The translations under genes were made by a program, and so were the position numbers. From contig JBKQPJ010000014.1 in assembly GCA_052326305.1 (NCBI GenBank), positions 9,006 through 73,005 of the forward strand: a stretch of DNA of 64,000 bases, given 5' to 3'. Below are positions 11,012 through 45,049 of the stretch, piece by piece. Within the stretch, counting starts at the first letter, position 1. Every line of letters starts with the position of its first letter. The stretch is from Thermoplasmata archaeon (GTDB lineage: Archaea; Thermoplasmatota; Thermoplasmata; Lutacidiplasmatales; UBA184). A model generated the notes under the pieces. That model made no database searches. It worked only from the letters and a program-made list of their open reading frames with translations, and was not told where the DNA came from.

Positions 11012-11680
11012 GTGAGGACCCACATCCCGGAACGATCGTCGGTGTGGCCGGTCCGGATCGTGGGGGACATCCACTGGATCCTCTCGACGCGACGCCGGTG
11101 GGACTGGGCCTGGGGCGACCCATGGCATGCCGCCCTGGCGATGTACGGGGATTACCTGCGGGCGGACTACCTGTACCGCCTTGTTCGGCAATGTCGCCCG
11201 GAGATCGCGGTGGAGACCGGGGTCCATTTCGGCAAGACGTCGACCGCGATCCTGGCCGCCCTTCATCGCAACCGCCACGGGCGTCTGATCTCGATCGACC
11301 TTCCCCGCACCGCGGCGACGGTGAACGCGGACGGGCGGCTCGCCCACGCGCACGTTAGATCGCTGGACGAGACCGGCCACCTCGTTCCCCACGACCTGCG
11401 CGATCGCTGGGACCTTCGACTGGGGGATGCCCGGGTCCTGCTGCCCCCCGCCCTGGAGGGCGGCCTCGGCTTCTTCTTCCACGATTCGGATCACTCGCAC
11501 GCGCACCAGGAGTTCGAGTTCGAGACGGCGTGGCGGGCGCTGTCGGTCGGGGGCGTGCTGGCCTCGGACGACACCGACTGGTCGACCGCGTGGCCGGAGT
11601 TCCTCGCGCGCCACCGCGGGGAGCTCGAGCCGCTTCCCAATGGACCGGCCGGGATACGGGCGGTTCGCCGGACCGCCTAG
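11012..11680 (+). CDS. Class I SAM-dependent methyltransferase (CmcI/Methyltransf_24-like)
   Basis: VETGVHFGKTSTAILAAL is a motif I-type Gly loop. It is followed by LISIDL and FFHDSDHSH. The ORF opens at 10952, but GTG 11012 sits about 30 nt after the CTTATTTTCT box, so the start is uncertain. Confidence 0.75.
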   Translation: MRTHIPERSSVWPVRIVGDIHWILSTRRRWDWAWGDPWHAALAMYGDYLRADYLYRLVRQCRPEIAVETGVHFGKTSTAILAALHRNRHGRLISIDLPRTAATVNADGRLAHAHVRSLDETGHLVPHDLRDRWDLRLGDARVLLPPALEGGLGFFFHDSDHSHAHQEFEFETAWRALSVGGVLASDDTDWSTAWPEFLARHRGELEPLPNGPAGIRAVRRTA

Positions 11681-11854
11681 ACCCGTTCTGCGCCGCGCGA
11701 AATCGACTGCCCGGCACTTGGACGCCGACCGGTACGGCACGAAGTCCGGGACGATCGGTCGAGCTCCGATCCCGAGCCCGGGGAGGGGCGCCGGGGCCGA
11801 CGGGCGTCATCCGTGCCTGTCTTAACCTGACGCCGGATTCCTTTCCGATACGAA

Positions 11855-13219
11855 ATGGCCGAACAGCAACGCCCCCCCCGCCACGCTCCCTCCCCGGGAA
11901 CCGAAGTGCGGTTCGAAGAGATGGCCCTCCACCCGACGCTGCGGCAAGGGATCCGGGAGATGGGCTACCATACCGCCACCCCCATCCAGAGCAGGGCGAT
12001 CCCGGACGCGGTCGGCGGCCGCGACATCGTGGCGACCGCCCAGACCGGGACGGGGAAGACCGCCGCTTTCCTTCTGCCGATCCTCGAACGGACCCTCGAC
12101 CTTCCGCACGGCCACATCTACGCGCTCGTGCTGACCCCCACCCGAGAGCTCGCGCTGCAGGCCGAGGGTTTCGTCAAGAAGCTCGGCCACTACACGAAGC
12201 GGCGCGGGGCGGCCGTCTACGGCGGTGTGGGCATGGAGCCCCAGACCCGCGCCCTGCGCGGAGGGGCGGAGATCATCATCGCCACGCCGGGGCGGCTCCT
12301 CGACCATATGAATCGGGGGTACGTCAATTTCGACTCCCTGAAGATCCTCGTGCTGGACGAGGCCGACCGGATGCTGGACATGGGCTTCCTTCCCGACGTG
12401 CGTCGCATCCTGACCGGGATCCCGCGCGTCCGCCAGACGATGCTCTTCTCCGCGACCATGCCCCCCGCGATCGTCGAGCTCGCGCACGAGTTCCTCCGCG
12501 AGCCCCGCATGGTCCACGTCGACCCGACGACCGTCGCCGCGGTCGGTGTCTCCCACCTCGCGCTGCCGGTGCCGGGCCACCTCAAGGCCGCGCTCCTCCG
12601 CGAGCTGCTCCGCGACGAGACGATGTCGAGCGTGCTCGTCTTCGCCCGAACGAAGCACCGCGCGGACCGCCTCGCCCGCCAGCTCGACCAGTGGGGGATC
12701 TCCACCTCGGTGATCCACGGCAACCGCAGCCAGAGCCAGCGGGTCAGCGCCCTCGAGGGGTTCCGCGAGGGCGACCACCGCGTGCTCGTGGCGACCGACA
12801 TCGCCGCCCGGGGGATCGATGTCGAGGGCGTGAGCCATGTCATCAATTTCGACATTCCGGTCGAGCCCGAGGCGTACGTCCATCGGGTCGGGCGGACCGC
12901 CCGGGCCCAGCGGCAGGGGGACGCGTACAGCTTCGTGAGCCCCGACGAGCAGTCCAACTTCGGCCGGGTCGAGAGGCTCCTCGGGTTCGAGATACCGCGC
13001 GCCCGCATCCCGGGCTTCGCCTACGACGCCCCCGCCCCTCCGCGCGCCGCCGGTGGGGGGGAATCCTCGGGCCGGGGCCGCGGGGGGGGTCGGTCGGACC
13101 GGGGTCGGCCACCGCGCTCCCGCGACCGGGGAGAACGCCGCCGGGACGGCCCTTCGCGTTCGACCCGGTCCGAGGACTCCTCGGGTGGGCGGAACCGTCG
13201 GACCTACCGCCGCTGGTGA
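11855..13219 (+). CDS. DEAD-box ATP-dependent RNA helicase with RG-rich C-terminal tail
   Basis: The Q-motif/TPIQ, AQTGTGKT, VLDEADRMLD, SAT and HRVGRTARA motifs are all present. The last ~70 aa are Arg/Gly/Ser-rich. Confidence 0.95.
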   Translation: MAEQQRPPRHAPSPGTEVRFEEMALHPTLRQGIREMGYHTATPIQSRAIPDAVGGRDIVATAQTGTGKTAAFLLPILERTLDLPHGHIYALVLTPTRELALQAEGFVKKLGHYTKRRGAAVYGGVGMEPQTRALRGGAEIIIATPGRLLDHMNRGYVNFDSLKILVLDEADRMLDMGFLPDVRRILTGIPRVRQTMLFSATMPPAIVELAHEFLREPRMVHVDPTTVAAVGVSHLALPVPGHLKAALLRELLRDETMSSVLVFARTKHRADRLARQLDQWGISTSVIHGNRSQSQRVSALEGFREGDHRVLVATDIAARGIDVEGVSHVINFDIPVEPEAYVHRVGRTARAQRQGDAYSFVSPDEQSNFGRVERLLGFEIPRARIPGFAYDAPAPPRAAGGGESSGRGRGGGRSDRGRPPRSRDRGERRRDGPSRSTRSEDSSGGRNRRTYRRW

Positions 13220-32198: not shown

Positions 32199-34517
32199 TC
32201 AGGCGGCCGGGGGATCGGCGGGCGGCGGCTGCGCCGCGCCACGACGTCGGCGTCGGCGCAGGGCGAGGAGCGTGGCTCCCCCCACGGCCAGGATCGCGCC
32301 CGCGCCGCCCAGCACGTAGTACCCGGTGTCTCCCGGGAGCCCGAGGAATCCTGCGTGGGGCGAGAACCTCACGCTGACGCCCTGAGGACCCCCCGAGATC
32401 TGGAGCGACCCGGACGACGGAGAGACCGCGTAGCCGGGCCGAGGAACGACCGTGAACGGGAACGCGCCGTCGGGCGCGTAGAACGTGATCGTGCGGTTCG
32501 TGGAAGAGTAGGTGGTACCGTTCGAACTCACGGACCAATGCTCGCCGGCCGCGAGCCCGCTCTCGGTGAACGTCACCGGGTACGACCCGAGGGGCACCCG
32601 GCTCGAGATGAGCGAGATCGTTCCCTGCTCGAGGTTGGTGGCGTACAGGAGCTGGTTCGTAGGATCGTAGGCCACGTCCTGGGGGTAGGCTCCGACCGGG
32701 AACGTGGCGACGACCGAATTGGTGGTGACGGAGATCAGGGTCACGTTGTCCGAGACCGAGTTGGCGACTAGGACGTCCCCCAGGGCGCTATCGTACGCCA
32801 GTCCTGAGGGGTAGGCCCCGACGGAGATGGTCGCCACGACCTGGTCGGTGGCGTCGGAGACGACCAAGGTTCGATTCCAATCCGAGCTGGAGGGTCCCCC
32901 CGAGTTCGTATCGGCCACGAACACCTCGCCGGTCCGGCGCTCGTAGGCCATCTCGTCCGGGCAGCCCCCCAAGTGGATCGAACGCACGACCCGATCCGTC
33001 CGGTCCGAGATCACGCTGAGGTTGTCCGAAGGGCAATTCGAGACGAAGACCTCCCCCGTTCCGGGGTCGTACGCGACCCCGGACGGCAGCGAGCCCACGC
33101 GGACGCTCGCCACCACCTGGTCGGTCGTGTCGTTGATCACGCTGACGTTTCCGGAGCCCGTGTTCACGACGAAGACCTCTCCCATCCCTCGGTCGTAGGC
33201 GATCCCGAACGGTTCGCTTCCGACCGGAACGCTCGCCACCAGGGCTTCGGTGGCGCCGGCGAGCACGTCCACCCGGCCCGTCACGCCCCCGACGACGACG
33301 AAGAGCTGACCCGTCCCGTTGTCGTACGCCCCGGGGCGCGCGAGGCCGAGCCCGGGGAAGCTCTCCACGACCCGGTTCGTGGCGTCGTCGATCACGCTCT
33401 CGTTGCCCCAGTATCCGTTGGCGACGAACAGCTCGCGCTGACCGCTATCGTACACGAGGTCGAGCGGCAGGGCGCCGACGCCGATCGTCACCACGAGGCC
33501 GTTCGTGAGGTCCGAGATGACCGCCACGGCATTGGCGTTCTCTTCCGTAACGAAGAGCTCGCCCTGGCCCGGATCGTAGGCGGCGCCGCCGGTGCCGCCG
33601 GCCACGATCGGGACGGTCGCGACGACCGAGTTCGACGACCCGTTGAGGACGGTCACGTCCCCCGTTCCGGTGTTCGATACGAAGAGCTCGGCCTTCGCGC
33701 TGTCGTAGGCGATGCCGTCGGGGTATCCCCCGAGGGAGAGCGTCGCCGCGACCGAATCCGTGCTGTCGTTGAGGACGCTCACATTGCCCCACCCTCCGCC
33801 GTACGATGCGACGAAGACCTCTCCGGTACGGCCGTCGTACGCGAGGGCGTAGGGCAGGAGCCCTACCGGAACGGTCGCGACGACCTCGTCAGTAGCGTCC
33901 GAGATCGCGCTGACCGACCCTCCCCCGGTCAGGGGAGACGTGTCCGCCACGAAGACCTCCTTCTCTCCCCGATCGTACGTCGCCGCCCGGGGGTTGTCCC
34001 CCACCGAGATCGTCACCACGACCTGGTCGGTCGAGTCGTTGATCACGCTCACGTCGTCTGAGATGGAGTTGACGACGAACATCTCCCCCGCCCCGCGGTC
34101 GTAGACCACGCCGGTGGGCGCATTGCCGACCGGGAGGTTCTCCAGCACGGTGTTCGTCCTGCCCGAGATCACGGAGACCTGGCCACTCAGCAGATCCGCC
34201 ACGAACACCTCGCCCGTCCGGTTGTCGTACGCCAGCGCATCCGGTCCCGATCCGACCGGCACCGTCGTGATCACCCGCTCGGTGAGGTCCGAGATCACCG
34301 TGACGTTGTTGGAAGAGAAGTCCGCGACGAAGACCTCTCCCCTTCCCGAGTCGAAGGCAGCCGCTGTGGGGCCTTGGCCGTCCGCCGCGAGGAAGTTCCC
34401 GGGCATGAGGGTGTCGTTCTGGAGAACGAGGGTGTCGACCACGTGGGGATCCGTACCGGGGGGGCTGAACGGAGAAGGCCTTCCGACGCCCGGGTCCGAG
34501 CTCGACGGGAGAAGCAA
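32199..34517 (-). CDS. YVTN-family beta-propeller repeat surface protein with C-terminal beta-sandwich and TM anchor (N-terminus disrupted or frameshifted)
   Basis: More than 12 repeats of the ...P.G.AYD...GEVFVAN..S.NVSVI.D.T..VV..I.VG type, then the FTESGLAAGEHWSV domain and the anchor YYVLGGAGAILAVGGATLLALRRRRRR. The listed ORF starts at TTG with no signal peptide. The frame stays open upstream. Confidence 0.8.
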   Translation of the reverse strand: MLLPSSSDPGVGRPSPFSPPGTDPHVVDTLVLQNDTLMPGNFLAADGQGPTAAAFDSGRGEVFVADFSSNNVTVISDLTERVITTVPVGSGPDALAYDNRTGEVFVADLLSGQVSVISGRTNTVLENLPVGNAPTGVVYDRGAGEMFVVNSISDDVSVINDSTDQVVVTISVGDNPRAATYDRGEKEVFVADTSPLTGGGSVSAISDATDEVVATVPVGLLPYALAYDGRTGEVFVASYGGGWGNVSVLNDSTDSVAATLSLGGYPDGIAYDSAKAELFVSNTGTGDVTVLNGSSNSVVATVPIVAGGTGGAAYDPGQGELFVTEENANAVAVISDLTNGLVVTIGVGALPLDLVYDSGQRELFVANGYWGNESVIDDATNRVVESFPGLGLARPGAYDNGTGQLFVVVGGVTGRVDVLAGATEALVASVPVGSEPFGIAYDRGMGEVFVVNTGSGNVSVINDTTDQVVASVRVGSLPSGVAYDPGTGEVFVSNCPSDNLSVISDRTDRVVRSIHLGGCPDEMAYERRTGEVFVADTNSGGPSSSDWNRTLVVSDATDQVVATISVGAYPSGLAYDSALGDVLVANSVSDNVTLISVTTNSVVATFPVGAYPQDVAYDPTNQLLYATNLEQGTISLISSRVPLGSYPVTFTESGLAAGEHWSVSSNGTTYSSTNRTITFYAPDGAFPFTVVPRPGYAVSPSSGSLQISGGPQGVSVRFSPHAGFLGLPGDTGYYVLGGAGAILAVGGATLLALRRRRRRGAAQPPPADPPAA

Positions 34518-36415: not shown

Positions 36416-36979
36416 TCAGCCGCAGCAGCTGCCGTCCTGGTTCGGGAGGTCCGGGTTCTCGGGGAAGCCATCGCACGATGGGTTCCCGCTCGCCGAGATC
36501 GTGACCGAGAAGGAGGCGCCCACATGCTCGCAGGAGTTGCCGGCGCCCGCGGCCAGGCCGAAGACGGCGTGGTAGGCGAACGTGTGGCCGGGGGCCAGCT
36601 CGACCTCGGGGGAGGCCGAGAGGAGGTTGTCCGCGTAGGTGAAGCTGGTGCATCCCCTCGGCAGGGTCGCCGAGATGTGCGGAACGAGTCCAGCGAGGGC
36701 GTTCCCCGTGTTCTCGAGCGTCGCGTTCAGCCAACAGTGGGTCCCGGGGTAAAGACCGGAAGCACTGGTGGTCAGCACCGAGGAGGTCGGCGTGACCGCG
36801 CAGACGACCGAGTGGGCGCTCGCGGCCACCGAGGTCGGGGCGACCCAGGCGATCCCCGGCTCGGGGGTGCATCCTCCGTGGTGGTGGTCGTCGCAACCTC
36901 CGCCGCCGCCCCAGGCGAAGCCCACCCCGCCCACGGCGAGGACGGCCCCAGCGAGGGCGAGGACCACGATCAGCTTCAC
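36416..36979 (-). CDS. TasA/SipW-substrate-like secreted protein, paralogue 3 (Cys/His-rich)
   Basis: GTG 36979 lies 31 nt after the upstream stop. The leader is KLIVVLALAGAVLAVGGVGFAW. The mature part starts GGGGGCDDHHHGGC, contains LNATLENTG and FSVTISA, and ends DGSCCG. Confidence 0.6.
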   Translation of the reverse strand: MKLIVVLALAGAVLAVGGVGFAWGGGGGCDDHHHGGCTPEPGIAWVAPTSVAASAHSVVCAVTPTSSVLTTSASGLYPGTHCWLNATLENTGNALAGLVPHISATLPRGCTSFTYADNLLSASPEVELAPGHTFAYHAVFGLAAGAGNSCEHVGASFSVTISASGNPSCDGFPENPDLPNQDGSCCG

Positions 36980-37010
36980 GTCGCCGAACCCCGAAACGGA
37001 AGGATCGAAC

Positions 37011-37538
37011 CTACACCCCGGCGGTGGCGGTATAGGTGACCGTGAAGGTGGCCCACACGAGGCCGCCGCATCGGGGAGGTAGGGTTCCCGAGTGCAGGCC
37101 CCAGTAGGACGTGAACGAGGCCCCGGGACCGAGGACGTCCCCCGGCGGGTCGTTGGCTTCGAGGACCTCTCCGTACGCGCCGACGCTGCAGGAGGCCGGT
37201 CCGTGGAACGTCGTGGTGAACACCCACGCCACGTTCTGGGCGGGGACGCTCCCGATGTTCTTGACGACGACCGAGATGTTGAACAGGGTGGTCGGCGGCG
37301 TGTTGTTGATCCACGCCTGGACCAACGGCGAGGGCAGCACCGTCGTCTGGACCGTGACGTACGCGGGGCCCCCGACAAGGCCCACGCTCGTGATCACGAG
37401 CCCGAAAGAGGCGGCCGACGCGTGGGCCTCGACCGTCGCCGAGCCCGCGAAGGCGGCGAACCCGACCCCGCTCGAGACGACCAGGAGCACCGCCACGACG
37501 GCGGGCACGGTCCATCGGGCGTGGCGTCCGAGGCTCAT
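37011..37538 (-). CDS. TasA/SipW-substrate-like secreted protein, paralogue 2
   Basis: 175 aa. GGAGGGAG lies 3 nt before the ATG. The leader is ...VPAVVAVLLVVSSGVGFAAFAGSATV, with a central ISVVVKNIG and a C-terminal ATFTVTYTATAGV. Confidence 0.7.
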   Translation of the reverse strand: MSLGRHARWTVPAVVAVLLVVSSGVGFAAFAGSATVEAHASAASFGLVITSVGLVGGPAYVTVQTTVLPSPLVQAWINNTPPTTLFNISVVVKNIGSVPAQNVAWVFTTTFHGPASCSVGAYGEVLEANDPPGDVLGPGASFTSYWGLHSGTLPPRCGGLVWATFTVTYTATAGV

Positions 37539-37644
37539 CGGCTCCCTCCACCGCTCCGAGGCGCGCGCGCCGACCTCAACGGTCGGGACCGCTCGCCAAC
37601 GGGGCAGTTCGGGTTCCGGGATGCGCTTCGAGCGCGGCGGGCGT

Positions 37645-38202
37645 TCAGATGCCCGCGACCCCCGTGAAGAAGACCGAGAAGAGGCCGCTCGGGGGGGCGG
37701 TGACCGACCCCGAAGGGATCCCCACCCAGATCGTGTCGACGTAGGTGCCGCCGACGGCCAGGGTCGTGATGCCGTTGACGTTCAGTACCGGCGTCGCGGA
37801 GGTCAGACCCGCCGTGTCCCGGACCGCGAAGCAGTTCAGCGACGGGCCGGGCGCGCAGATGCCGCTCGTCTCGTTGAGCTGGTTGTTGAGGACCACGGGG
37901 ACCGTGCCGACGTTCGTCACGGTCACCGAGAAGTAGCAGAAGTCGCCCGGAACGAGGTTCGAGACCCCGACGCTCACGAGGGTGTGCGACGGGTTCTCGG
38001 AGAAGCTGAACGACCCCGGCGCGGGGCCCCCGCTCGGGTACGCGCAGGCCCCTGCCTGGGGGGAGTTCAAGGCGATCGCCGCCGTACCTGCGGTGGCCGT
38101 ACCGTTCACCGTGGCCGTCGCCGTGAACGCGGAGTACCCGACCCCGACGAGCGCCGCGACAGCAAGAACTCCGAGCAGGCCCACGACCCATCGATTCGAC
38201 AT
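37645..38202 (-). CDS. TasA/SipW-substrate-like secreted protein, paralogue 1
   Basis: 185 aa. The leader is MSNRWVVGLLGVLAVAALVGVGYSAFTATATV, with a central FSVTVTNVG and a C-terminal LFSVFFTGVAGI. Confidence 0.7.
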   Translation of the reverse strand: MSNRWVVGLLGVLAVAALVGVGYSAFTATATVNGTATAGTAAIALNSPQAGACAYPSGGPAPGSFSFSENPSHTLVSVGVSNLVPGDFCYFSVTVTNVGTVPVVLNNQLNETSGICAPGPSLNCFAVRDTAGLTSATPVLNVNGITTLAVGGTYVDTIWVGIPSGSVTAPPSGLFSVFFTGVAGI

Positions 38203-38248
38203 GTCTTCTACCCAGGAGGCAGGCGCCTCCGGCGCACCATGGCCGAGG

Positions 38249-38259
38249 CTATTTAATAG
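38249..38259 (-). promoter_or_regulatory. AT-rich TATA-like element (plus strand CTATTTAATAG) upstream of paralogue 1
   Basis: This is the only AT-rich block in the 161-nt gap. It lies about 50 nt upstream of ATG 38202, which suggests an internal promoter for the subunit genes. Confidence 0.4.
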
Positions 38260-38363
38260 GCATCAGAAGGGTCTAGCCTCTTCGTCCGTAGCATCCGGCG
38301 GAATCGTCCCTATCATCGCCGAGGGACGCTGCGCGCCACGGTACACGTCCCGGCCCGGCCGGA

Positions 38364-39788
38364 TCAGCTCTTCGGACCCGTCCCTTTGGTCGGCGGAGGA
38401 GTTCCCGGGCGGTCGGAAGGAGGGCTTCCGGCGGCCCCGGAGGCGGGGGTCTTGCCCGGTGTGTCCCAAGGGCCGAGGCGGGCGTACAGCTGTCCCAGGA
38501 CGACCCAGGCCGCGTCGATGCGCCCGCGCTGTGCGAGGCCGATCGCCCGCAGCAGGAGCTCCTCCGAGTCCTGGCGCAGAGAGCTCGACGGCCGGAACCA
38601 GCGCAGCCGGTCGGAGATGCGGTCGCTCCAGACGACGAACGACTCGAGGTTCGAGGTGTCCACTCCGGGAATGCGGGGATAGCGCTGGTTCCAGTCGCGC
38701 ACCCTGGCGGTCAGGTTCTTCGGGGGCACCGGGGCGCCGGGCCGGGGCAGGGGCTCGGGAGGCAACGGCGCCTCGGCACCGGCTCGGCCGCCGTGGACGA
38801 AGACGAAGGCGGTCGTCCCCGAGACGACGTAGAAGGAGGTGGTCGCAGGAACGTCCGGGCCCGTCACCGACGGGCGGACGACGCGAACGATCGGCGAGCC
38901 GAGCGTGTCGGCCGCCTTGACGATGTCCTCCCAGGCCCGGACAGGCACGACGTTCGTCGCCCCGGGAGGCGCGCGCGCGTCGACGATCGCCTCCTCGTAC
39001 GGCCGGGTGATCGCCGCGAGCTCGCGCGTCGGCGGCACGTCGTGGCGCGTCTCCCACGTCAGGTACCCCATTGCGAGCGCGCCGCCGACCGCCCCGAAGA
39101 GGAGCAGGAAGGCGACGACCGAGACGTTCGCGCGGGCGGAGGTCGTCGGGTCGCTCCCCGGGGGAACGAACGCCCCGCTCGAGGAGGAGGTGAGGTGGGA
39201 CGGCTCGATCTGGCTCGCGGTGAAGTTGAGCGTGAGGGCCGGGAAGAACGCGATCCCGGTCGCGTCCTCGTCGAGCCCGACCGAGCTGTGGACGGACGGG
39301 GCGATCACGACGGAGTAGGAGTTCGGGGTGTACCCGGTCTGCTTCTCGATCGCCGTCGCGAGGCCGGTGATGTAACTGACGTTCAGGTTGTAGACGACCC
39401 CGAGGGTCGAGAGGGAGCCCTGCCGGACGCTCGTGCTGACGGTCTCGGTGAACAGCGTCTTCGACCACGCGGGGCTCTCGACGATTACGGAGACCGACGC
39501 GGTGTTCGTGGCGTTGACCGCGCGGTCCGCGGTGAACCGGTACGTGAAGGAGACGTTGACCCATTCGGTGATCGCGCTGAACAGCGTTCCGTTCCCGGGC
39601 GTCAGGGTGGTCGTGTTGTAGAGCGAGTTGTTCTTGAGGGCGGCGACGTACGTGAACCGGCCGTTCTGCCCGTAGGTGAACAGGGGCTTCGCCGCCGTCT
39701 TGACCGGGTGATCCGTCGCCGCGACCCAGTAGCCGGCGAACAGGGCGAGCAGCACGAAGATCACGAGCCCGATGACGACCGCCTTCAT
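38364..39788 (-). CDS. Two-TM membrane protein with sequon-rich ectodomain and cytoplasmic tail (DUF5305-like topology, unverified)
   Basis: ATG 39788 overlaps the peptidase stop (ATGA). TM1 is KAVVIGLVIFVLLALFAGYWV. An ectodomain of about 270 aa has many N-x-S/T sites. TM2 is VSVVAFLLLFGAVGGALAMGYL. A tail of about 190 aa follows. The upstream 58 codons of the long ORF overlap the peptidase gene and were rejected. Confidence 0.7.
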   Translation of the reverse strand: MKAVVIGLVIFVLLALFAGYWVAATDHPVKTAAKPLFTYGQNGRFTYVAALKNNSLYNTTTLTPGNGTLFSAITEWVNVSFTYRFTADRAVNATNTASVSVIVESPAWSKTLFTETVSTSVRQGSLSTLGVVYNLNVSYITGLATAIEKQTGYTPNSYSVVIAPSVHSSVGLDEDATGIAFFPALTLNFTASQIEPSHLTSSSSGAFVPPGSDPTTSARANVSVVAFLLLFGAVGGALAMGYLTWETRHDVPPTRELAAITRPYEEAIVDARAPPGATNVVPVRAWEDIVKAADTLGSPIVRVVRPSVTGPDVPATTSFYVVSGTTAFVFVHGGRAGAEAPLPPEPLPRPGAPVPPKNLTARVRDWNQRYPRIPGVDTSNLESFVVWSDRISDRLRWFRPSSSLRQDSEELLLRAIGLAQRGRIDAAWVVLGQLYARLGPWDTPGKTPASGAAGSPPSDRPGTPPPTKGTGPKS

Positions 39789-41134
39789 CCCGAGGGCCTC
39801 CGATGGGGGAAACGGCCAGAGCCACTGGGCCAGAAGAGGGTTCCGAGGAGGGCCGCGACCACGAGGGTCCCCGCGGTGAGGGCCGGGGACAGGATGAAGA
39901 ACCCGGCCCACGGCACGATGGCGGCGACCCGCCCGAGCACGGAAGAGTAGGGAACCGGACAAGTGTCGGCGGAGGGGTTCGCGTCACCCTTGGTCGTGAA
40001 CACGGGCCCGTTCGGGCCGCTCGCGATCGCGACCACCCGGTGGACGACCGGCGAGGGAAGGCAGGTCGTCGTGTAGGCGACGATCGTCCCGACCGTGATC
40101 TCGGAGGCGGGCACGTGCTGGATCACTACGAGGGTGCCGCGGTGCAGCGTCGGCACCATGCTGCCGGTCTCGATCGCGAGGAACGGGTGGTCGGTCCCGA
40201 GCGCGTACGGGACCCCACCGATCACCCCGACGACGACGAGGAGCGCCACGACCCCGACGACGACCGCCTCGCGGATCTGATGGCGTCGGCGCAGCTTTCC
40301 GAGGAAGCGGTCCCGGCGCGGGCCGAACGGCTCTCCCAGGTACCGGCGGGCGACGAGCTTCGGCTCCCGCAGGGTCGCGAGGATCACGAGGAGGAGCACC
40401 GCGTCGGCGAACAGCGCGATGAGGAAGACGAAGACCCACCCCGGGGAGAGGGAGACCACGGGGGTCAGGCTCGCGACGAGGAGGCCGCCCGTCCGCAGGA
40501 CGAACGGTCCGAGGAGGTTGCGGCTCGACTTGTAGTAGTAGAACGCGAGGACGAGACCGAGCGTGAGCGCGATCGCGGTGTTCGTCAGCAGGTACGTGCC
40601 GAGCTCGACCGTGCCGAGGGAGTGGAGGATCGGGAAGTTCGTGAGGGTCAGGGCGAACGTCGTCGAGGAGATCCCGAGCGCGGAGGCGAAGCGTCGCGGC
40701 GAGAGTAGCCGGCCGAAGATGTAGCCGCGGAAGACGGCCTCCTGGCCCAGCGCGCTCAGGGGGGCGAGGGCGAGCGCGTACCCGAAGCCGATCGGAGAGA
40801 GATGGGCCTGGCGCGCGAACCCAAAACCGAAGCCGGGCTCGAGGAGGACGGCGGTCTGGATGACGACGAGGAAGCCGGCGAGGCCGAGGGCCGGCAGCCA
40901 CGGCTTCGGGAGCGCGAACCCGTAGGAGGAGAGCGGTTCGCCGTCCCACCGTGTCCAGAGCAGGAAGAGGCCGAACAGGGCCGCCGGCACGAGGAGGCCG
41001 ACGGCGAGGTCGGCCCGCAGCGGGAGGTGCGGGCTCTCGTAGAGGTATCCCTGGGTGACGGCGAACGCCGCGGCAAAGAGCAGGAGGGGACGAACGAGCG
41101 CCCGGGGCTGGGGAAGACGCTCCGAACGGTTCAC
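39785..41134 (-). CDS. Fusion protein: CPBP/Abi-like intramembrane domain + S26 (SipW/ER-type) signal peptidase I
   Basis: GTG 41134 is preceded by GGAGG with a 7-nt spacer. The N-terminal multi-TM part has QEAVFRG and FPILH. The C-terminal part has GSMVPTL, VVHRVV and TKGDAN, the Ser/His-type S26 boxes. Confidence 0.75.
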   Translation of the reverse strand: MNRSERLPQPRALVRPLLLFAAAFAVTQGYLYESPHLPLRADLAVGLLVPAALFGLFLLWTRWDGEPLSSYGFALPKPWLPALGLAGFLVVIQTAVLLEPGFGFGFARQAHLSPIGFGYALALAPLSALGQEAVFRGYIFGRLLSPRRFASALGISSTTFALTLTNFPILHSLGTVELGTYLLTNTAIALTLGLVLAFYYYKSSRNLLGPFVLRTGGLLVASLTPVVSLSPGWVFVFLIALFADAVLLLVILATLREPKLVARRYLGEPFGPRRDRFLGKLRRRHQIREAVVVGVVALLVVVGVIGGVPYALGTDHPFLAIETGSMVPTLHRGTLVVIQHVPASEITVGTIVAYTTTCLPSPVVHRVVAIASGPNGPVFTTKGDANPSADTCPVPYSSVLGRVAAIVPWAGFFILSPALTAGTLVVAALLGTLFWPSGSGRFPHRRPSG

Positions 41135-41168
41135 GAGGTCGCCTCCGGCTCCGGCGCGCGAGCGTCGA

Positions 41169-41729
41169 TCAGCGGCGGGCCGGGCCCGGTCGCTTCCCTG
41201 GCATCGTGCGACCCGGGTTGTAGGACCGGCCCGGTGCCCGGGTCCGTCCGCCCGAGATCCCACCGGACGGGGCCTTCAGGTCGGCCCACGCCAGGCGGGC
41301 CAGGAGTTGGACGGCGTTGTACGGGGGCTTACCGCGGGCCTGACCGCTCCCCGGGGTCCCCGTGAGCCGGCCGAGGTTCTCGATCGCCTCCGAGACCTCC
41401 GAGCCCTTCATGAGGATCGCGTTGACCACGCCGAGCCACTCCTCGCCGGCCGGCGTCGCCGAGAGACCTACCCCGGTCGGCTCGACGAGGCCGAGGTCGA
41501 CCGCGAGGGAGGAGTAGCGGTAGAACGACGACTGGTTCAGGTTCGCCATGCCGATGATCCGTGTCTTGCGTTCCTCGGTCGACGCCGCCCGAACGAGGTC
41601 CCGGAGGACCTCGATCTTCGTCCGGTACCGCCCTGCGCTTCCTCGCACTACTGCCTCAGTTCCTCGGGACCCGGTCCCGTTCGCCCCTCCCGGAGGGGGG
41701 AGGGCCACTTGACCGGAGTGGTATAACAT
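41169..41729 (-). CDS. Winged-helix transcription regulator (archaeal HTH_45-like) with basic C-terminal tail
   Basis: RTKIEVLRDLVRAAS..KTRIIGMANLNQSSFYRYSSLAVDLGLVE fits the archaeal wHTH pattern. The start codon is uncertain; GTG 41648 is possible. Confidence 0.6.
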   Translation of the reverse strand: MLYHSGQVALPPPGGANGTGSRGTEAVVRGSAGRYRTKIEVLRDLVRAASTEERKTRIIGMANLNQSSFYRYSSLAVDLGLVEPTGVGLSATPAGEEWLGVVNAILMKGSEVSEAIENLGRLTGTPGSGQARGKPPYNAVQLLARLAWADLKAPSGGISGGRTRAPGRSYNPGRTMPGKRPGPARR

Positions 41730-43096: not shown

Positions 43097-43195
43097 GCCG
43101 AAGCTCCGGCCCATTCCCGAGCCGGACGCCCGACAGGTAGGCTAGGGACCTGCGGCGGCAAGGATAAGCGGCCGCTCGAAGTGGAGGCCCTCTGG

Positions 43196-44242
43196 ATGCA
43201 GATCCTCCGGAGCAAGGCACCGCTTAGGATCAGCTTCGCCGGCGGAGGGACGGACGTCTCGCCGTACCCCGAGGAGAAGGGGGGCGCCGTGCTCAACTGC
43301 ACGATCGACAAGTACGCCTACGCGACCCTCGAGGCGATCCCGGACGGGCTCGGGAAGATGTCGGTCGAGTCGCTCGACTACAACGTCGTCGTCAACTACC
43401 AGAAGCAGGCCGACCTCGTCTACAACGGCGAGCTTGACCTCGTGAAGGCCGCTATCAAGGTGCTTCGCAAGCCGGACGGATCCAAGCGAGAGCTCGACAC
43501 CCTGCGCCTCTTCCTTCACTCCGACGCGCCCGGTGGAACGGGGCTGGGGAGCTCGTCGACGATGTGCGTGGCCCTCGTCGGGGCGTTCCAGCACTACCTC
43601 AAGGAGCCCTGGACGTCGTACGACGTCGCCGAGATGGCGTATCACATCGAGCGAGAAGAGCTCGGCTTCAAGGGCGGCCGCCAGGACATGTACGCCGCGG
43701 CGTTCGGAGGCTTCAACTTCATGGAGTTCAACGGTCGCCGCTCCGTGGTCAACCAGCTCAAGATCCGCCCCGAGGTCGCCAACGAGCTTGCGTACCGCCT
43801 TCTCCTCTGCTACACCGGGACGGGGCACTTCTCGAACGACATCATCGAGCGCCAGCAGCAGAGCTACAGCGACAAGCGGAGCGGTACGGTGGACGCGCTG
43901 GACGCGACGAAGCAGCTCGCGATCGACATGAAGAACGAGCTGCTCCGCGGTAACATCGACGAGATGGGCCGGCTCCTCGACCAGGGGTGGCAGCTGAAGA
44001 AGAAGTTCACCGAAGGGATCTCGAACGATCGCATCGATGCCCTGTACACGCACGCGAAAGAGGCCGGAGCGCTCGGAGGGAAGCTCACGGGCGCTGGGGG
44101 CGGGGGGTACCTGCTCCTCTTCTGTGACTTCGCGCGTCGCGCCCAGGTCGCGAAATCGATCCAGAGCCTCGGGGGCCGCGTGGAGGACTTCTCGCTCGAG
44201 CCGCTCGGCCTACAGACCTGGTCGGTGCGTTTGGCCGCGTGA
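43196..44242 (+). CDS. GHMP-family sugar kinase (HddA/fucokinase-like)
   Basis: APLRISFAGGGTD, the GHMP motif DAPGGTGLGSSSTMCVAL, and the C-terminal GGKLTGAGGGGYLL are present. ATG 43196 is preceded by GGAGG. Confidence 0.85.
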   Translation: MQILRSKAPLRISFAGGGTDVSPYPEEKGGAVLNCTIDKYAYATLEAIPDGLGKMSVESLDYNVVVNYQKQADLVYNGELDLVKAAIKVLRKPDGSKRELDTLRLFLHSDAPGGTGLGSSSTMCVALVGAFQHYLKEPWTSYDVAEMAYHIEREELGFKGGRQDMYAAAFGGFNFMEFNGRRSVVNQLKIRPEVANELAYRLLLCYTGTGHFSNDIIERQQQSYSDKRSGTVDALDATKQLAIDMKNELLRGNIDEMGRLLDQGWQLKKKFTEGISNDRIDALYTHAKEAGALGGKLTGAGGGGYLLLFCDFARRAQVAKSIQSLGGRVEDFSLEPLGLQTWSVRLAA

Positions 44243-44257
44243 ACCCGGGACGCTCCG

Positions 44258-45049
44258 ATGTCCGAGGCGGAGCGCTCGGAGACCGGGACGGCGCCCGCGG
44301 TCCCCGGCTTGTCGATCGTGCTCGTCACCTACAACGAACGGCCGAACCTGCCGGAACTGGTCGAGCGCTTGCGAGCGGTCTCCCTCCCTGCGTGGGAGGC
44401 GATCGTGGTCGATGACGGGAGCACCGACGGAACCCGCGAGTTCGTAGAGGAGGTCGCGGCCACCGATCCCCGGTTCCGCTTCTTCTACCATGACGGCAAG
44501 CAGACGACCGTCCGGGCCCAGAGCCAGGGGATCCTCGCGGCCCGGGGACGTTTCGTGGCGGTGCTCGACGCCGACCTGCAGCACCCCCCCGAGCTGCTCC
44601 CCGGGATGATCTCCGCGCTGGAACGCGGGTCGTCCCTCGTCGTGGCGAGCCGGTACCTGCCGGGCGGCTCCCCGGGGGCCCGGACCGCTCTTCGGGGTTT
44701 CATTTCCCGGGCGGCCGACGCGATCGCACGGGCGATGCTTTCGGAGGCACGACGCGTCACCGATCCCGTCTCCGGCTTCTTTGCCTTCCGCCGGGAGGTG
44801 TTCCTCCCCCTCGACCCGGGGTTCCGGGGCTACAAACTGCTCCTGTTCCTGTTGGTGATGACCCGGGGCCAGCCGGTGTCGGAGGTACCGTTCCGCTTCG
44901 AGCCGAGGACCGCCGGCGCGAGCAAGGTCGTCGGCGGCCTCGGCTTCGTCCGGGTCTTCCTGACGGAGGTCCTGATGGCCAAACGGATCGAGTTCGCGCT
45001 GCAGCGGGGAAAGGGGCCACCCGCGCTCGCCCGCGAAACCGACGCCTAG
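44258..45049 (+). CDS. GT2 glycosyltransferase (dolichyl-phosphate mannose synthase-like)
   Basis: LSIVLVTYNERPNL, VVDDGSTDGT and VLDADLQHPPE are typical of the DPM1-like GT2 family. Confidence 0.85.
   Translation: MSEAERSETGTAPAVPGLSIVLVTYNERPNLPELVERLRAVSLPAWEAIVVDDGSTDGTREFVEEVAATDPRFRFFYHDGKQTTVRAQSQGILAARGRFVAVLDADLQHPPELLPGMISALERGSSLVVASRYLPGGSPGARTALRGFISRAADAIARAMLSEARRVTDPVSGFFAFRREVFLPLDPGFRGYKLLLFLLVMTRGQPVSEVPFRFEPRTAGASKVVGGLGFVRVFLTEVLMAKRIEFALQRGKGPPALARETDA

Follow-up and report, generated by a model that had tools for sequence, protein, structure and literature searches.

What is built by a compact cluster of six genes in an uncultured soil archaeon of the Thermoplasmata, and how much of its machinery has been described before? 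The question is raised by positions 36416-41729 on the minus strand of a 64-kb stretch of DNA, which is referred to below as the window. A first examination of this DNA, made without database searches (the sequence-only reading), had proposed that the locus encodes a TasA/SipW-like extracellular fibre system with three paralogous subunits and a dedicated membrane partner. When the open reading frames (ORFs) of the window were checked, all six genes were found at the positions that had been predicted for them. Their order on the minus strand is regulator, signal peptidase with about ten transmembrane (TM) segments, two-TM protein of the DUF5305 type, and three genes for small proteins, designated here P1, P2 and P3:

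41169-41729, minus strand: putative transcription regulator with a winged helix (HTH_45/Sso10a-like; Pfam HTH_45, E=2.7e-6; NCBIfam Sso10a_fam, E=5e-9)
39785-41134, minus strand: protein of about ten TM segments, with an N-terminal eight-TM CPBP/Rce1-like module fused to a C-terminal signal peptidase I of the archaeal/endoplasmic reticulum type (PF02517, TIGR02228, hydropathy)
38364-39788, minus strand: two-TM DUF5305 protein, TafG-like (Pfam DUF5305, E=2.2e-6; ATGA overlap; topology; conservation)
37645-38202, minus strand: P1, putative major fibre subunit, 185 amino acids (aa) (AbpX/TasA profile matches; structure model; own promoter-like box)
37011-37538, minus strand: P2, putative minor or adaptor subunit, 175 aa (hhalign match to P1; conserved in orthologous loci)
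36416-36979, minus strand: P3, divergent paralogue without a donor strand, 187 aa (hhalign matches to P1 and P2)

In our view, the cluster most likely builds a cell-surface protein fibre akin to those of bacterial TasA and archaeal AbpX. More specifically, we assign a probability of about 0.75 to its being a locus for a TasA-superfamily extracellular fibre of the AbpX type, equipped with dedicated processing machinery. This gene layout has already been published, in papers of 2025-2026, and the locus described here is a new, lineage-specific member of a known system, which leaves the published basic picture of the Tafi and AbpX loci unchanged. Its identification would extend TasA/AbpX-type fibre loci to uncultured, high-GC soil Thermoplasmata (about 33 species-level genomes; the GC content is 63-73% throughout the window). 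Three traits of the clade deserve mention without being surprising, namely the charge-poor subunits, an apparently degenerate CPBP origin of the enlarged peptidase and the lipobox-like character of a terminal subunit.

Homology of the three small proteins

The proposed three-way paralogy of the small proteins was upheld by comparison of their orthologue alignments with hhalign, which joined P1 to P2 with 96% probability (E=2.9e-9, 159 columns), P1 to P3 with 88% (E=3.5e-6) and P2 to P3 with 88.5% (E=2.7e-6). The close relatives of P1 numbered 12, all of them from metagenome bins of Thermoplasmata, and a profile made from them led to 487 representatives in a collection of 1.8 billion proteins. 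Among 88 profile-linked relatives the commonest Pfam match was Peptidase_M73, the TasA family (18 of the 88 at E<=0.01).

Profiles of different depth were compared with the PDB. A broad profile (A2) matched AbpX (9sj2) at E=4.4e-19 and TasA (8aur/5of1) at about 5e-6 (4.5e-6). A profile of 64 “AAFT”-type relatives (A4) matched AbpX at E=9.9e-10 (9sj2) and 7.5e-9 (9rhp) across positions 27-167, its next match having an E-value of 0.02. With the close relatives only (A1), AbpX was found at 0.002; the top PDB match of this profile, MreC (3e-4), was judged to be spurious, since it covered a short C-terminal stretch and was not repeated with the deeper A4 profile. The alignment places F26 of P1 opposite W2 of AbpX, which forms the “aromatic clamp” of its donor strand, and P2 likewise has A-F; further along, SNLVPGDFCYFSVTVTNVGTVP of P1 aligns to the PG...N.G..P core common to AbpX and TasA. 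These matches support the placement of the small proteins in the TasA superfamily, where AbpX, an archaeal subunit of a donor-strand fibre with known structure, is their closest relative. The TasA-like identity suggested earlier thus has significant profile homology behind it.

The leaders of P1 and P2 end in GVG[YF][SA] and are followed by A-F-[TA]-x-[ST]-A-T-V. The signal peptide of P1 would end with GVGYS and leave AFTATATVNGTATAG, the putative donor strand, as mature N-terminus; that predicted for P2 is AFAGSATVEAHASAASFG. Positions -3 and -1 of the predicted cleavage site are occupied by small residues (G-Y-S, G-F-A), and a cut one residue before the aromatic corresponds to the experimental mature N-termini of AbpX and TasA (10.64898/2026.01.04.697558). 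Residues 20-39 of P1 (G20-G39) are near-invariant and form the most conserved stretch of a protein whose mean column identity is 68%. An AlphaFold2 model of mature P1 (pLDDT 92.4) consists of a ten-strand all-beta domain, and its first 18 residues lie outside the strands. The N-terminal strand is thus conserved and amphipathic and, in the model, not self-complemented, which gives indirect support to polymerisation by donor-strand exchange.

The third paralogue departs from this pattern. A leader motif common to all three proteins had been claimed, and the signal or anchor helix of P3 does end in GVGFA; the AFTATATVNG-type strand is replaced in P3 by W-GGGGG-C-x9-C, and the protein ends with CCG. 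The P3-type protein of most Thermoplasmata species reads ...G-V-A-F-A-C-G-G-G-G... (examples are the gene at 11306-11878 of locus L009 and those of L013, L021, L025, L028-L030, L039 and L040), whereas in the subclade of the window Trp replaces Cys at position +1 (36900-36979). V-A-F-A-C-G-G-G-G fits the lipobox pattern of PROSITE, with a Gly-rich linker after it as is usual in lipoproteins, and it is a possibility that the P3-type terminal subunit is lipid-anchored in most species.

In comparison with AbpX, the subunits of the window are Cys-rich (4, 2 and 9 conserved Cys in P1, P2 and P3, respectively). Mature P1 has almost no charged residues (3.1% Asp plus Glu and one basic residue), which accounts for its isoelectric point (pI) of 4.1.

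Several observations weigh against a fibre of the AbpX type. The acidic residue at position 4 of the AbpX donor strand (E4, a calcium site), which AbpX-like proteins are described as conserving, is Ala, Thr or Ser in the P1 and P2 types of Thermoplasmata (the exceptions among those examined being Asp in L016 and Lys in P2 of L014), and Asp plus Glu make up 3% of mature P1 versus about 15% of the acid-rich AbpX (pI about 4). P1 alone remains below the Pfam cut-off for Peptidase_M73 (PF12389; 13.9 bits, E=0.05, versus 22.5), P2 and P3 are without any Pfam match, and neither the SipW-cognate signal model TIGR04088 nor any other NCBIfam model was matched by P1-P3 at E<=1. Foldseek searches of the PDB with the model of mature P1 and with one of full-length P1 (pLDDT 75) gave nothing below E=1e-3, and TasA, AbpA and AbpX were outside the top 50, in a fold library that the AbpX entries may post-date. 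Generic beta-sandwiches, among them CBM86 and domains of tailspike proteins, ranked best together with the pilin domain of PapG, at TM-scores of 0.27-0.47. A phmmer search with P1 alone against PDB sequences also yielded nothing relevant. Moreover, the homologues come without exception from uncultured organisms, and the fibre is a prediction from genes.

Since the P1 family fails two of the features by which the AbpX clade is defined (10.64898/2026.01.04.697558), we regard the P1 family as an AbpX-like relative within the TasA superfamily and not as an AbpX orthologue. The missing acidic position 4 and the small number of acidic residues make calcium-triggered assembly of a P1 fibre unlikely, and the fibre probably assembles without calcium. 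TasA/AbpX-type fibre subunits thus include charge-poor, Cys-rich forms that lack the calcium-binding residue of the donor strand, and the calcium-trigger model put forward for AbpX may therefore not be general.

Other identities considered for the small proteins were rejected. A type IV pilin with a class III signal peptide does not fit a cleavage motif located after the hydrophobic stretch or a locus without ATPase or platform genes. A camelysin-type metalloprotease is at odds with mature proteins that are almost devoid of His, Glu and Asp. The sequence CDDHHHGGC of P3 was examined as a metal site; only its two Cys residues are conserved in orthologues, and the His run is not.

The enlarged signal peptidase and its DUF5305 partner

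The peptidase ORF (449 aa) starts with GTG, 7 nt downstream of GGAGG, as had been pointed out before. Its residues 290-434 match archaeal signal peptidase I (S26B; TIGR02228) with 86.4 bits against a trusted cut-off of 51.85, and residues 119-213 match the Rce1-like family PF02517 with 31.8 bits against a Pfam gathering cut-off of 22.4. Hydropathy indicates about ten membrane segments, with the signal peptidase domain between the last two. The boxes GSMVPT, VHRVV and KGDAN named in the sequence-only reading are present, and the catalytic Ser325 (GSM), His365 (HR) and Asp384 (GDAN) are invariant in an alignment of 32 homologues. The protein is not a SipW equivalog (43.3 bits with NF046067, for which the cut-off is 190).

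The catalytic motifs of CPBP proteases, EExxxR, FxxxH and HxxxN/D, are degenerate in the N-terminal module. Motif 1 reads QEAVFRG in the window protein and AEAGLFFG, AYVAVLDG or ATAAVFLG in relatives, and the first Glu of EExxxR is absent throughout the 32 homologues (QE, AE, YV, TA). The second Glu, the His of FxxxH and the His of HxxxN are all unconserved in the same set, motif 3 having Tyr or another residue in place of His. It might nevertheless be supposed that the module is an active intramembrane glutamic protease, which either carries out a second maturation of the subunits (e.g. C-terminal trimming, as known from sorting systems that depend on CPBP proteases) or serves in Abi-like immunity. 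The PF02517 score does lie above the gathering threshold, a weak NCBIfam match to MrtJ-type CPBP was obtained (E=0.96), and the window protein retains FxxxH (NFPILH). These points are opposed by a first Glu that is never found, by the variability of the three other residues next to an invariant signal peptidase triad, and by subunits that have no C-terminal hydrophobic sorting signal. Judged by its motifs, the CPBP part is unlikely to have protease activity, and a second maturation or an immunity function appears very improbable. We consider that the module is probably an inactivated CPBP-like scaffold or substrate-binding module.

The Rce1-like match is confined to a part of the Thermoplasmata clade. 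Homologue P0187 has it too (30 bits), whereas P0209, P0212 and the bacterial counterparts described below gave no such match. An hhalign comparison of the archaeal and bacterial N-terminal modules was collinear across 163 columns, without being significant (4.5% probability, E=0.009). The eight extra helices of the “ten-TM signal peptidase I”, which have been unexplained, may derive from an inactivated CPBP/Rce1-like protease, and such a derivation gives a concrete hypothesis on what the extra module does.

The ATG of the DUF5305 gene overlaps the stop codon of the peptidase gene by 4 nt (ATGA), which confirms the ATGA coupling noted before. Its product scores 27.7 bits with the Pfam model, just below the cut-off of 29. 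The second TM helix lies at about residues 222-240, and for this reason the sequon-rich ectodomain comprises about 195 aa, not the approximately 270 aa of the first estimate; the cytoplasmic part (approximately 38364-39060) comprises about 230 aa. Conservation is lower in the ectodomain than in this part, in which a domain of about 75 aa following the second helix is the best-conserved region (motif PY.EAI...W.DLVK.ADTLGKPIL...FYV.DG..AY). Because the best-conserved part is cytoplasmic, there are hints of a role of DUF5305 that goes beyond merely aiding extracellular cleavage. The longer DUF5305 proteins, from loci with the subunit genes downstream, carry a long helical C-terminal tail, which is absent from the forms of about 350 aa. 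A DUF5305 profile found no relatives in the PDB.

The linkage of the small proteins with an S26 signal peptidase and the two-TM protein is conserved in related genomes, also where the neighbourhoods differ. A scan of one genome per GTDB species revealed the full-length enlarged peptidase in 33 genomes, all of them Thermoplasmata. Annotation with hidden Markov models placed the peptidase gene directly beside the DUF5305 gene in about 31 of these 33 loci, and subunit genes adjoin the two in nearly all; about 19 loci contain a P3-type gene, and a regulator orthologue lies upstream of the peptidase gene in 22. The subunit genes are found either downstream or upstream of the membrane protein genes, which gives two layouts. 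The same six genes occur in the same order in L001, L002, L005, L006 and L007, which represent four distinct close relatives (two of the contigs are near-identical). Distant peptidase homologues (47% and 41% identity; L008 and L009) are situated in unrelated neighbourhoods, and here too a DUF5305 gene and either one or three subunit genes come after the peptidase gene, those of L009 including a P3-type gene that reads ...VAFA-C-GGGGG-C.... The scan of GTDB species also recovered loci of Syntrophomonadaceae and Bacilli (L062, L073, L078, L080, L081, L083 and L087), in which a multi-TM protein of 375-415 aa that includes a signal peptidase domain is encoded with AbpX-like subunit genes on one side and a DUF5305-like gene on the other. 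Neither CPBP motifs nor a Pfam Rce1-like match was found in the N-terminal part of the bacterial peptidases.

In one Thermoplasmata genome, L014 (628-5204), the regulator, peptidase and DUF5305 genes are preceded by a tandem array of four P1-like genes with P2 and P3 after it. This array suggests amplification or antigenic diversification of the subunit.

Among known systems, the closest parallel is AbpX of Pyrodictium abyssi (PDB 9sj2/9rhp), a calcium-dependent donor-strand fibre of solved structure (10.64898/2026.01.04.697558). Beside AbpX-like minor subunits and tip proteins, most abpX loci are reported to encode transcription factors, a signal peptidase I of ten TM helices and, as “SPase accessory” protein, a member of DUF5305; the main text of this preprint mentions neither Thermoplasmata nor a CPBP/Rce1 relationship of the peptidase (10.64898/2026.01.04.697558). 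AbpX is the nearest relative of our subunits with a solved structure and shares with them a donor strand at the N-terminus in which the second mature residue is aromatic. The loci have in common major, minor and terminal subunits, a signal peptidase I of about ten TM segments, a DUF5305 protein, for which the topology is exactly the same, and a transcription factor. The hosts differ, that of AbpX being a hyperthermophile and that of the window a soil Thermoplasmata archaeon.

The second system to be compared is the haloarchaeal Tafi cluster (tafA-G of Haloarcula hispanica; TafE of Natrinema sp. J7-2). Deletion of tafD blocks both the processing of TafA and fibre formation (PMC11821415). The DUF5305 protein of this cluster, TafG, has been proposed to help the signal peptidase TafD, and the cluster also holds a regulator, several subunits and a proposed membrane anchor, TafF; analogous Sec-dependent clusters are known from Thermococcales and Archaeoglobales (PMC11821415, PMC12337348). 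The window locus resembles Tafi in the signal peptidase I next to a DUF5305 protein, in the regulator, and in several small paralogous subunits; the jelly-roll fold and donor-strand assembly of the Tafi subunits are proposed for those of the window. In addition, the layout of TafF (a TM helix and a jelly-roll domain) resembles that of P3. In contrast to Tafi, the leaders of P1-P3 have no twin-arginine motif (their n-regions are MSNRW, MSLGRHARW and MKL), the subunits show no sequence match to TafA or TafE, and DUF1102 was unmatched in P1-P3 and their 88 relatives. TafD has four TM helices and an N-terminal catalytic domain, whereas the window peptidase has about ten TM segments and a C-terminal catalytic domain. 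On the basis of these three differences, i.e. leader, subunit similarity and peptidase architecture, we do not count the window locus as a member of Tafi.

These comparisons answer the second part of our question. The sequence-only reading was right in so far as its fibre idea is supported, and its description of the large membrane protein and the fused peptidase as an undescribed part cannot be kept, since DUF5305 is TafG and since a ten-TM signal peptidase I and DUF5305 belong to the matching layout given in the AbpX preprint (PMC11821415, PMC12337348, 10.64898/2026.01.04.697558). The function of the two proteins in secretion, assembly or anchoring has only been proposed.

Two further systems are more distant. 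The tapA-sipW-tasA operon of Bacillus subtilis shares with the window an archaeal/endoplasmic reticulum-type Ser-His signal peptidase beside TasA-superfamily subunits, a mature N-terminus with an aromatic residue in second place (AFND in TasA) and the PG...N.G core. It differs in that no TapA homologue was recognised in the window locus, the window peptidase is not a SipW equivalog and has an extra eight-TM module, a DUF5305 partner is present, and the SipW-cognate signal model is unmatched. The archaeal bundling pilus (AbpA/AbpB of Pyrobaculum calidifontis, PDB 7UEG) is likewise an archaeal donor-strand fibre of the TasA superfamily with a winged-helix regulator in its operon, but this operon is without a dedicated signal peptidase or DUF5305 protein and has the TapA-like AbpB. 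AbpA was not recovered in our sequence or fold searches.

Assembly of the putative fibre and competing explanations

The evidence is consistent with the following scheme. P1, as the major subunit, and P2, as a minor or adaptor subunit, would be exported through Sec by means of their N-terminal signal peptides. The signal peptidase I of the locus, working with the DUF5305 protein, would cut after GVG[YF][SA], one residue before the aromatic, and the N-terminal strand freed in this way would enter the groove left open in the beta-sandwich of the next subunit (donor-strand complementation), so that a head-to-tail polymer arises. P3 has the same beta domain and no donor strand, and could therefore be placed only at one end of the polymer, either as a distal cap or as a membrane-proximal anchor; in the latter case it would be held by its own helix or, in most species, by a lipid attached to the Cys next to the cleavage motif, on its C-terminal side. 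The peptidase would act as partner of the translationally coupled DUF5305 protein, a TafG homologue, with its pseudo-CPBP module serving as a scaffold or in substrate binding. The winged-helix protein would regulate the cluster, and P1 would have a promoter of its own. An earlier division of the small proteins into major, minor and tip subunits agrees with this scheme in part: two donor-strand subunits and one terminal subunit fit the sequences, and the placing of P3 at the tip is not established.

The same fibre could have P3 as its cell-proximal anchor, with the first P2 or P1 inserting its donor strand into the empty groove of P3. The N-terminal helix of P3 would keep it in the membrane, or P3 would be cleaved before Cys and lipid-modified, and the fibre would grow from a fixed base. 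P3 combines a hydrophobic helix, a poly-Gly tether and a jelly-roll-like domain, as does TafF, the proposed anchor of Tafi (PMC12337348). The AbpX preprint, on the other hand, calls comparable components “tip proteins” (10.64898/2026.01.04.697558). Within the family itself the signals are also mixed. The lipobox-like sequence V-A-F-A-C-G-G-G-G of most Thermoplasmata species would suit an anchor, whereas the window subclade has Trp instead of the +1 Cys, the motif GV[GA][FY]A, which occurs in the cleaved subunits too, suggests the same cleavage by signal peptidase I, and lipoprotein biogenesis is not established for Thermoplasmata. We consider a P3 anchor quite possible, at somewhat less than even odds.

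A more radical alternative would do without a polymer, the small proteins being monomeric secreted or surface beta-sandwich proteins (adhesins or S-layer-associated proteins) that need a dedicated peptidase for their unusual leaders. Such a role would agree with the generic beta-sandwiches (CBMs, Ig-like domains) that alone were returned by the fold search, with subunits that lack the calcium-binding features of AbpX, and with the fact that, as regards polymerisation, the clade is known from genes alone. It is difficult to reconcile with the full-length profile homology of the P1 family to AbpX, a solved donor-strand fibre, or with a post-cleavage N-terminal strand that is the most conserved part of the protein. 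Furthermore, one paralogue specifically lacks this strand, as expected of subunits at a polymer end, and the layout of the locus is identical to that of experimentally studied fibre loci. We therefore regard monomeric proteins as distinctly unlikely and retain the fibre of the AbpX type.

A further-reaching version of the fibre model concerns its assembly. The pseudo-CPBP signal peptidase and the DUF5305 protein could together form a membrane platform in which cleavage is mechanically coupled to donor-strand insertion, in the manner of an usher without a chaperone. On such a platform the dead CPBP module may hold the leader helix, the DUF5305 ectodomain may cap the groove of the last subunit, and P3 may form the base, anchored by lipid or helix; the conserved cytoplasmic domain of DUF5305 may link the platform to the translocon or to a regulator. 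We think this unlikely; if true, fibres of the TasA superfamily, in bacteria as well as archaea, would be assembled by a principle that is new.

Control elements and neighbouring genes

The DUF5305 and P1 genes are separated by a spacer of 161 nt, in which three elements were recognised:

38281-38308, minus strand: conserved intergenic block GACGATTC...GAATGCTACGGACGAA (spacer alignment of six loci)
38250-38258, minus strand: TATA-like A/T box TATTAAATA, 48-56 nt upstream of the P1 start codon
38212-38233, minus strand: conserved stem-loop GGAGGC-n4-GCCTCC, 10-30 nt ahead of the ATG of P1 in what is presumably its 5' leader (RNAalifold)

The sequence TATTAAATA is the sole A/T-only run of 9 nt in the window; its count is not significant, as 0.7 such runs are expected by chance and at least one was found in 39 of 100 shuffles. 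A TTAA core is kept at the position of the box in five related loci, and the box may represent a promoter belonging to P1. The AT-rich, promoter-like box noticed in the sequence-only reading is thus real as a sequence with a conserved core, and it does not stand out by its run count. The block GACGATTC...GAATGCTACGGACGAA, about 25-55 nt upstream of the TATA-like box, is common to the six loci, including the distant L009, and is a candidate binding site of the winged-helix regulator of the locus.

The stem-loop was predicted by RNAalifold with 8 pairs, 1-2 of which are kept through two-sided changes (GAGAC/GTCTC in L001), and it occupies the same position in L001, L005, L006 and L007; the comparison covers five close relatives only and its support is weak. 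The structure may increase the stability of the major-subunit mRNA or act as a gate on its translation.

As for the regulator itself, its orthologues begin just ahead of GRYRTKIEVLRD, and its true start is therefore probably the in-frame internal GTG at 41648.

Elsewhere in the window, no tRNA genes were found with ARAGORN and no Rfam families at gathering thresholds. Positions 32199-34517 (minus strand) encode a protein of 772 aa composed of many YVTN/NHL-like beta-propeller repeats (…G..P.G.AYD...GE.FV.N...VSVI…). It carries many N-glycosylation sequons and a C-terminal membrane helix, which is followed by RRRRRR. A relative of this gene is located directly after P3 in L001, and in more distant loci it is unlinked.

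Just outside the locus, on the plus strand (43181-45049), lie a GHMP-kinase-like gene and a gene for a family-2 glycosyltransferase. The two genes are syntenic with the locus in the close relatives L001, L005 and L006 and absent from distant loci. A sulfatase gene accompanies the pair in L001 and L006, and L005 has an unannotated gene of 573 aa in its place. The GHMP-kinase-like and glycosyltransferase neighbours may be linked to surface glycosylation.

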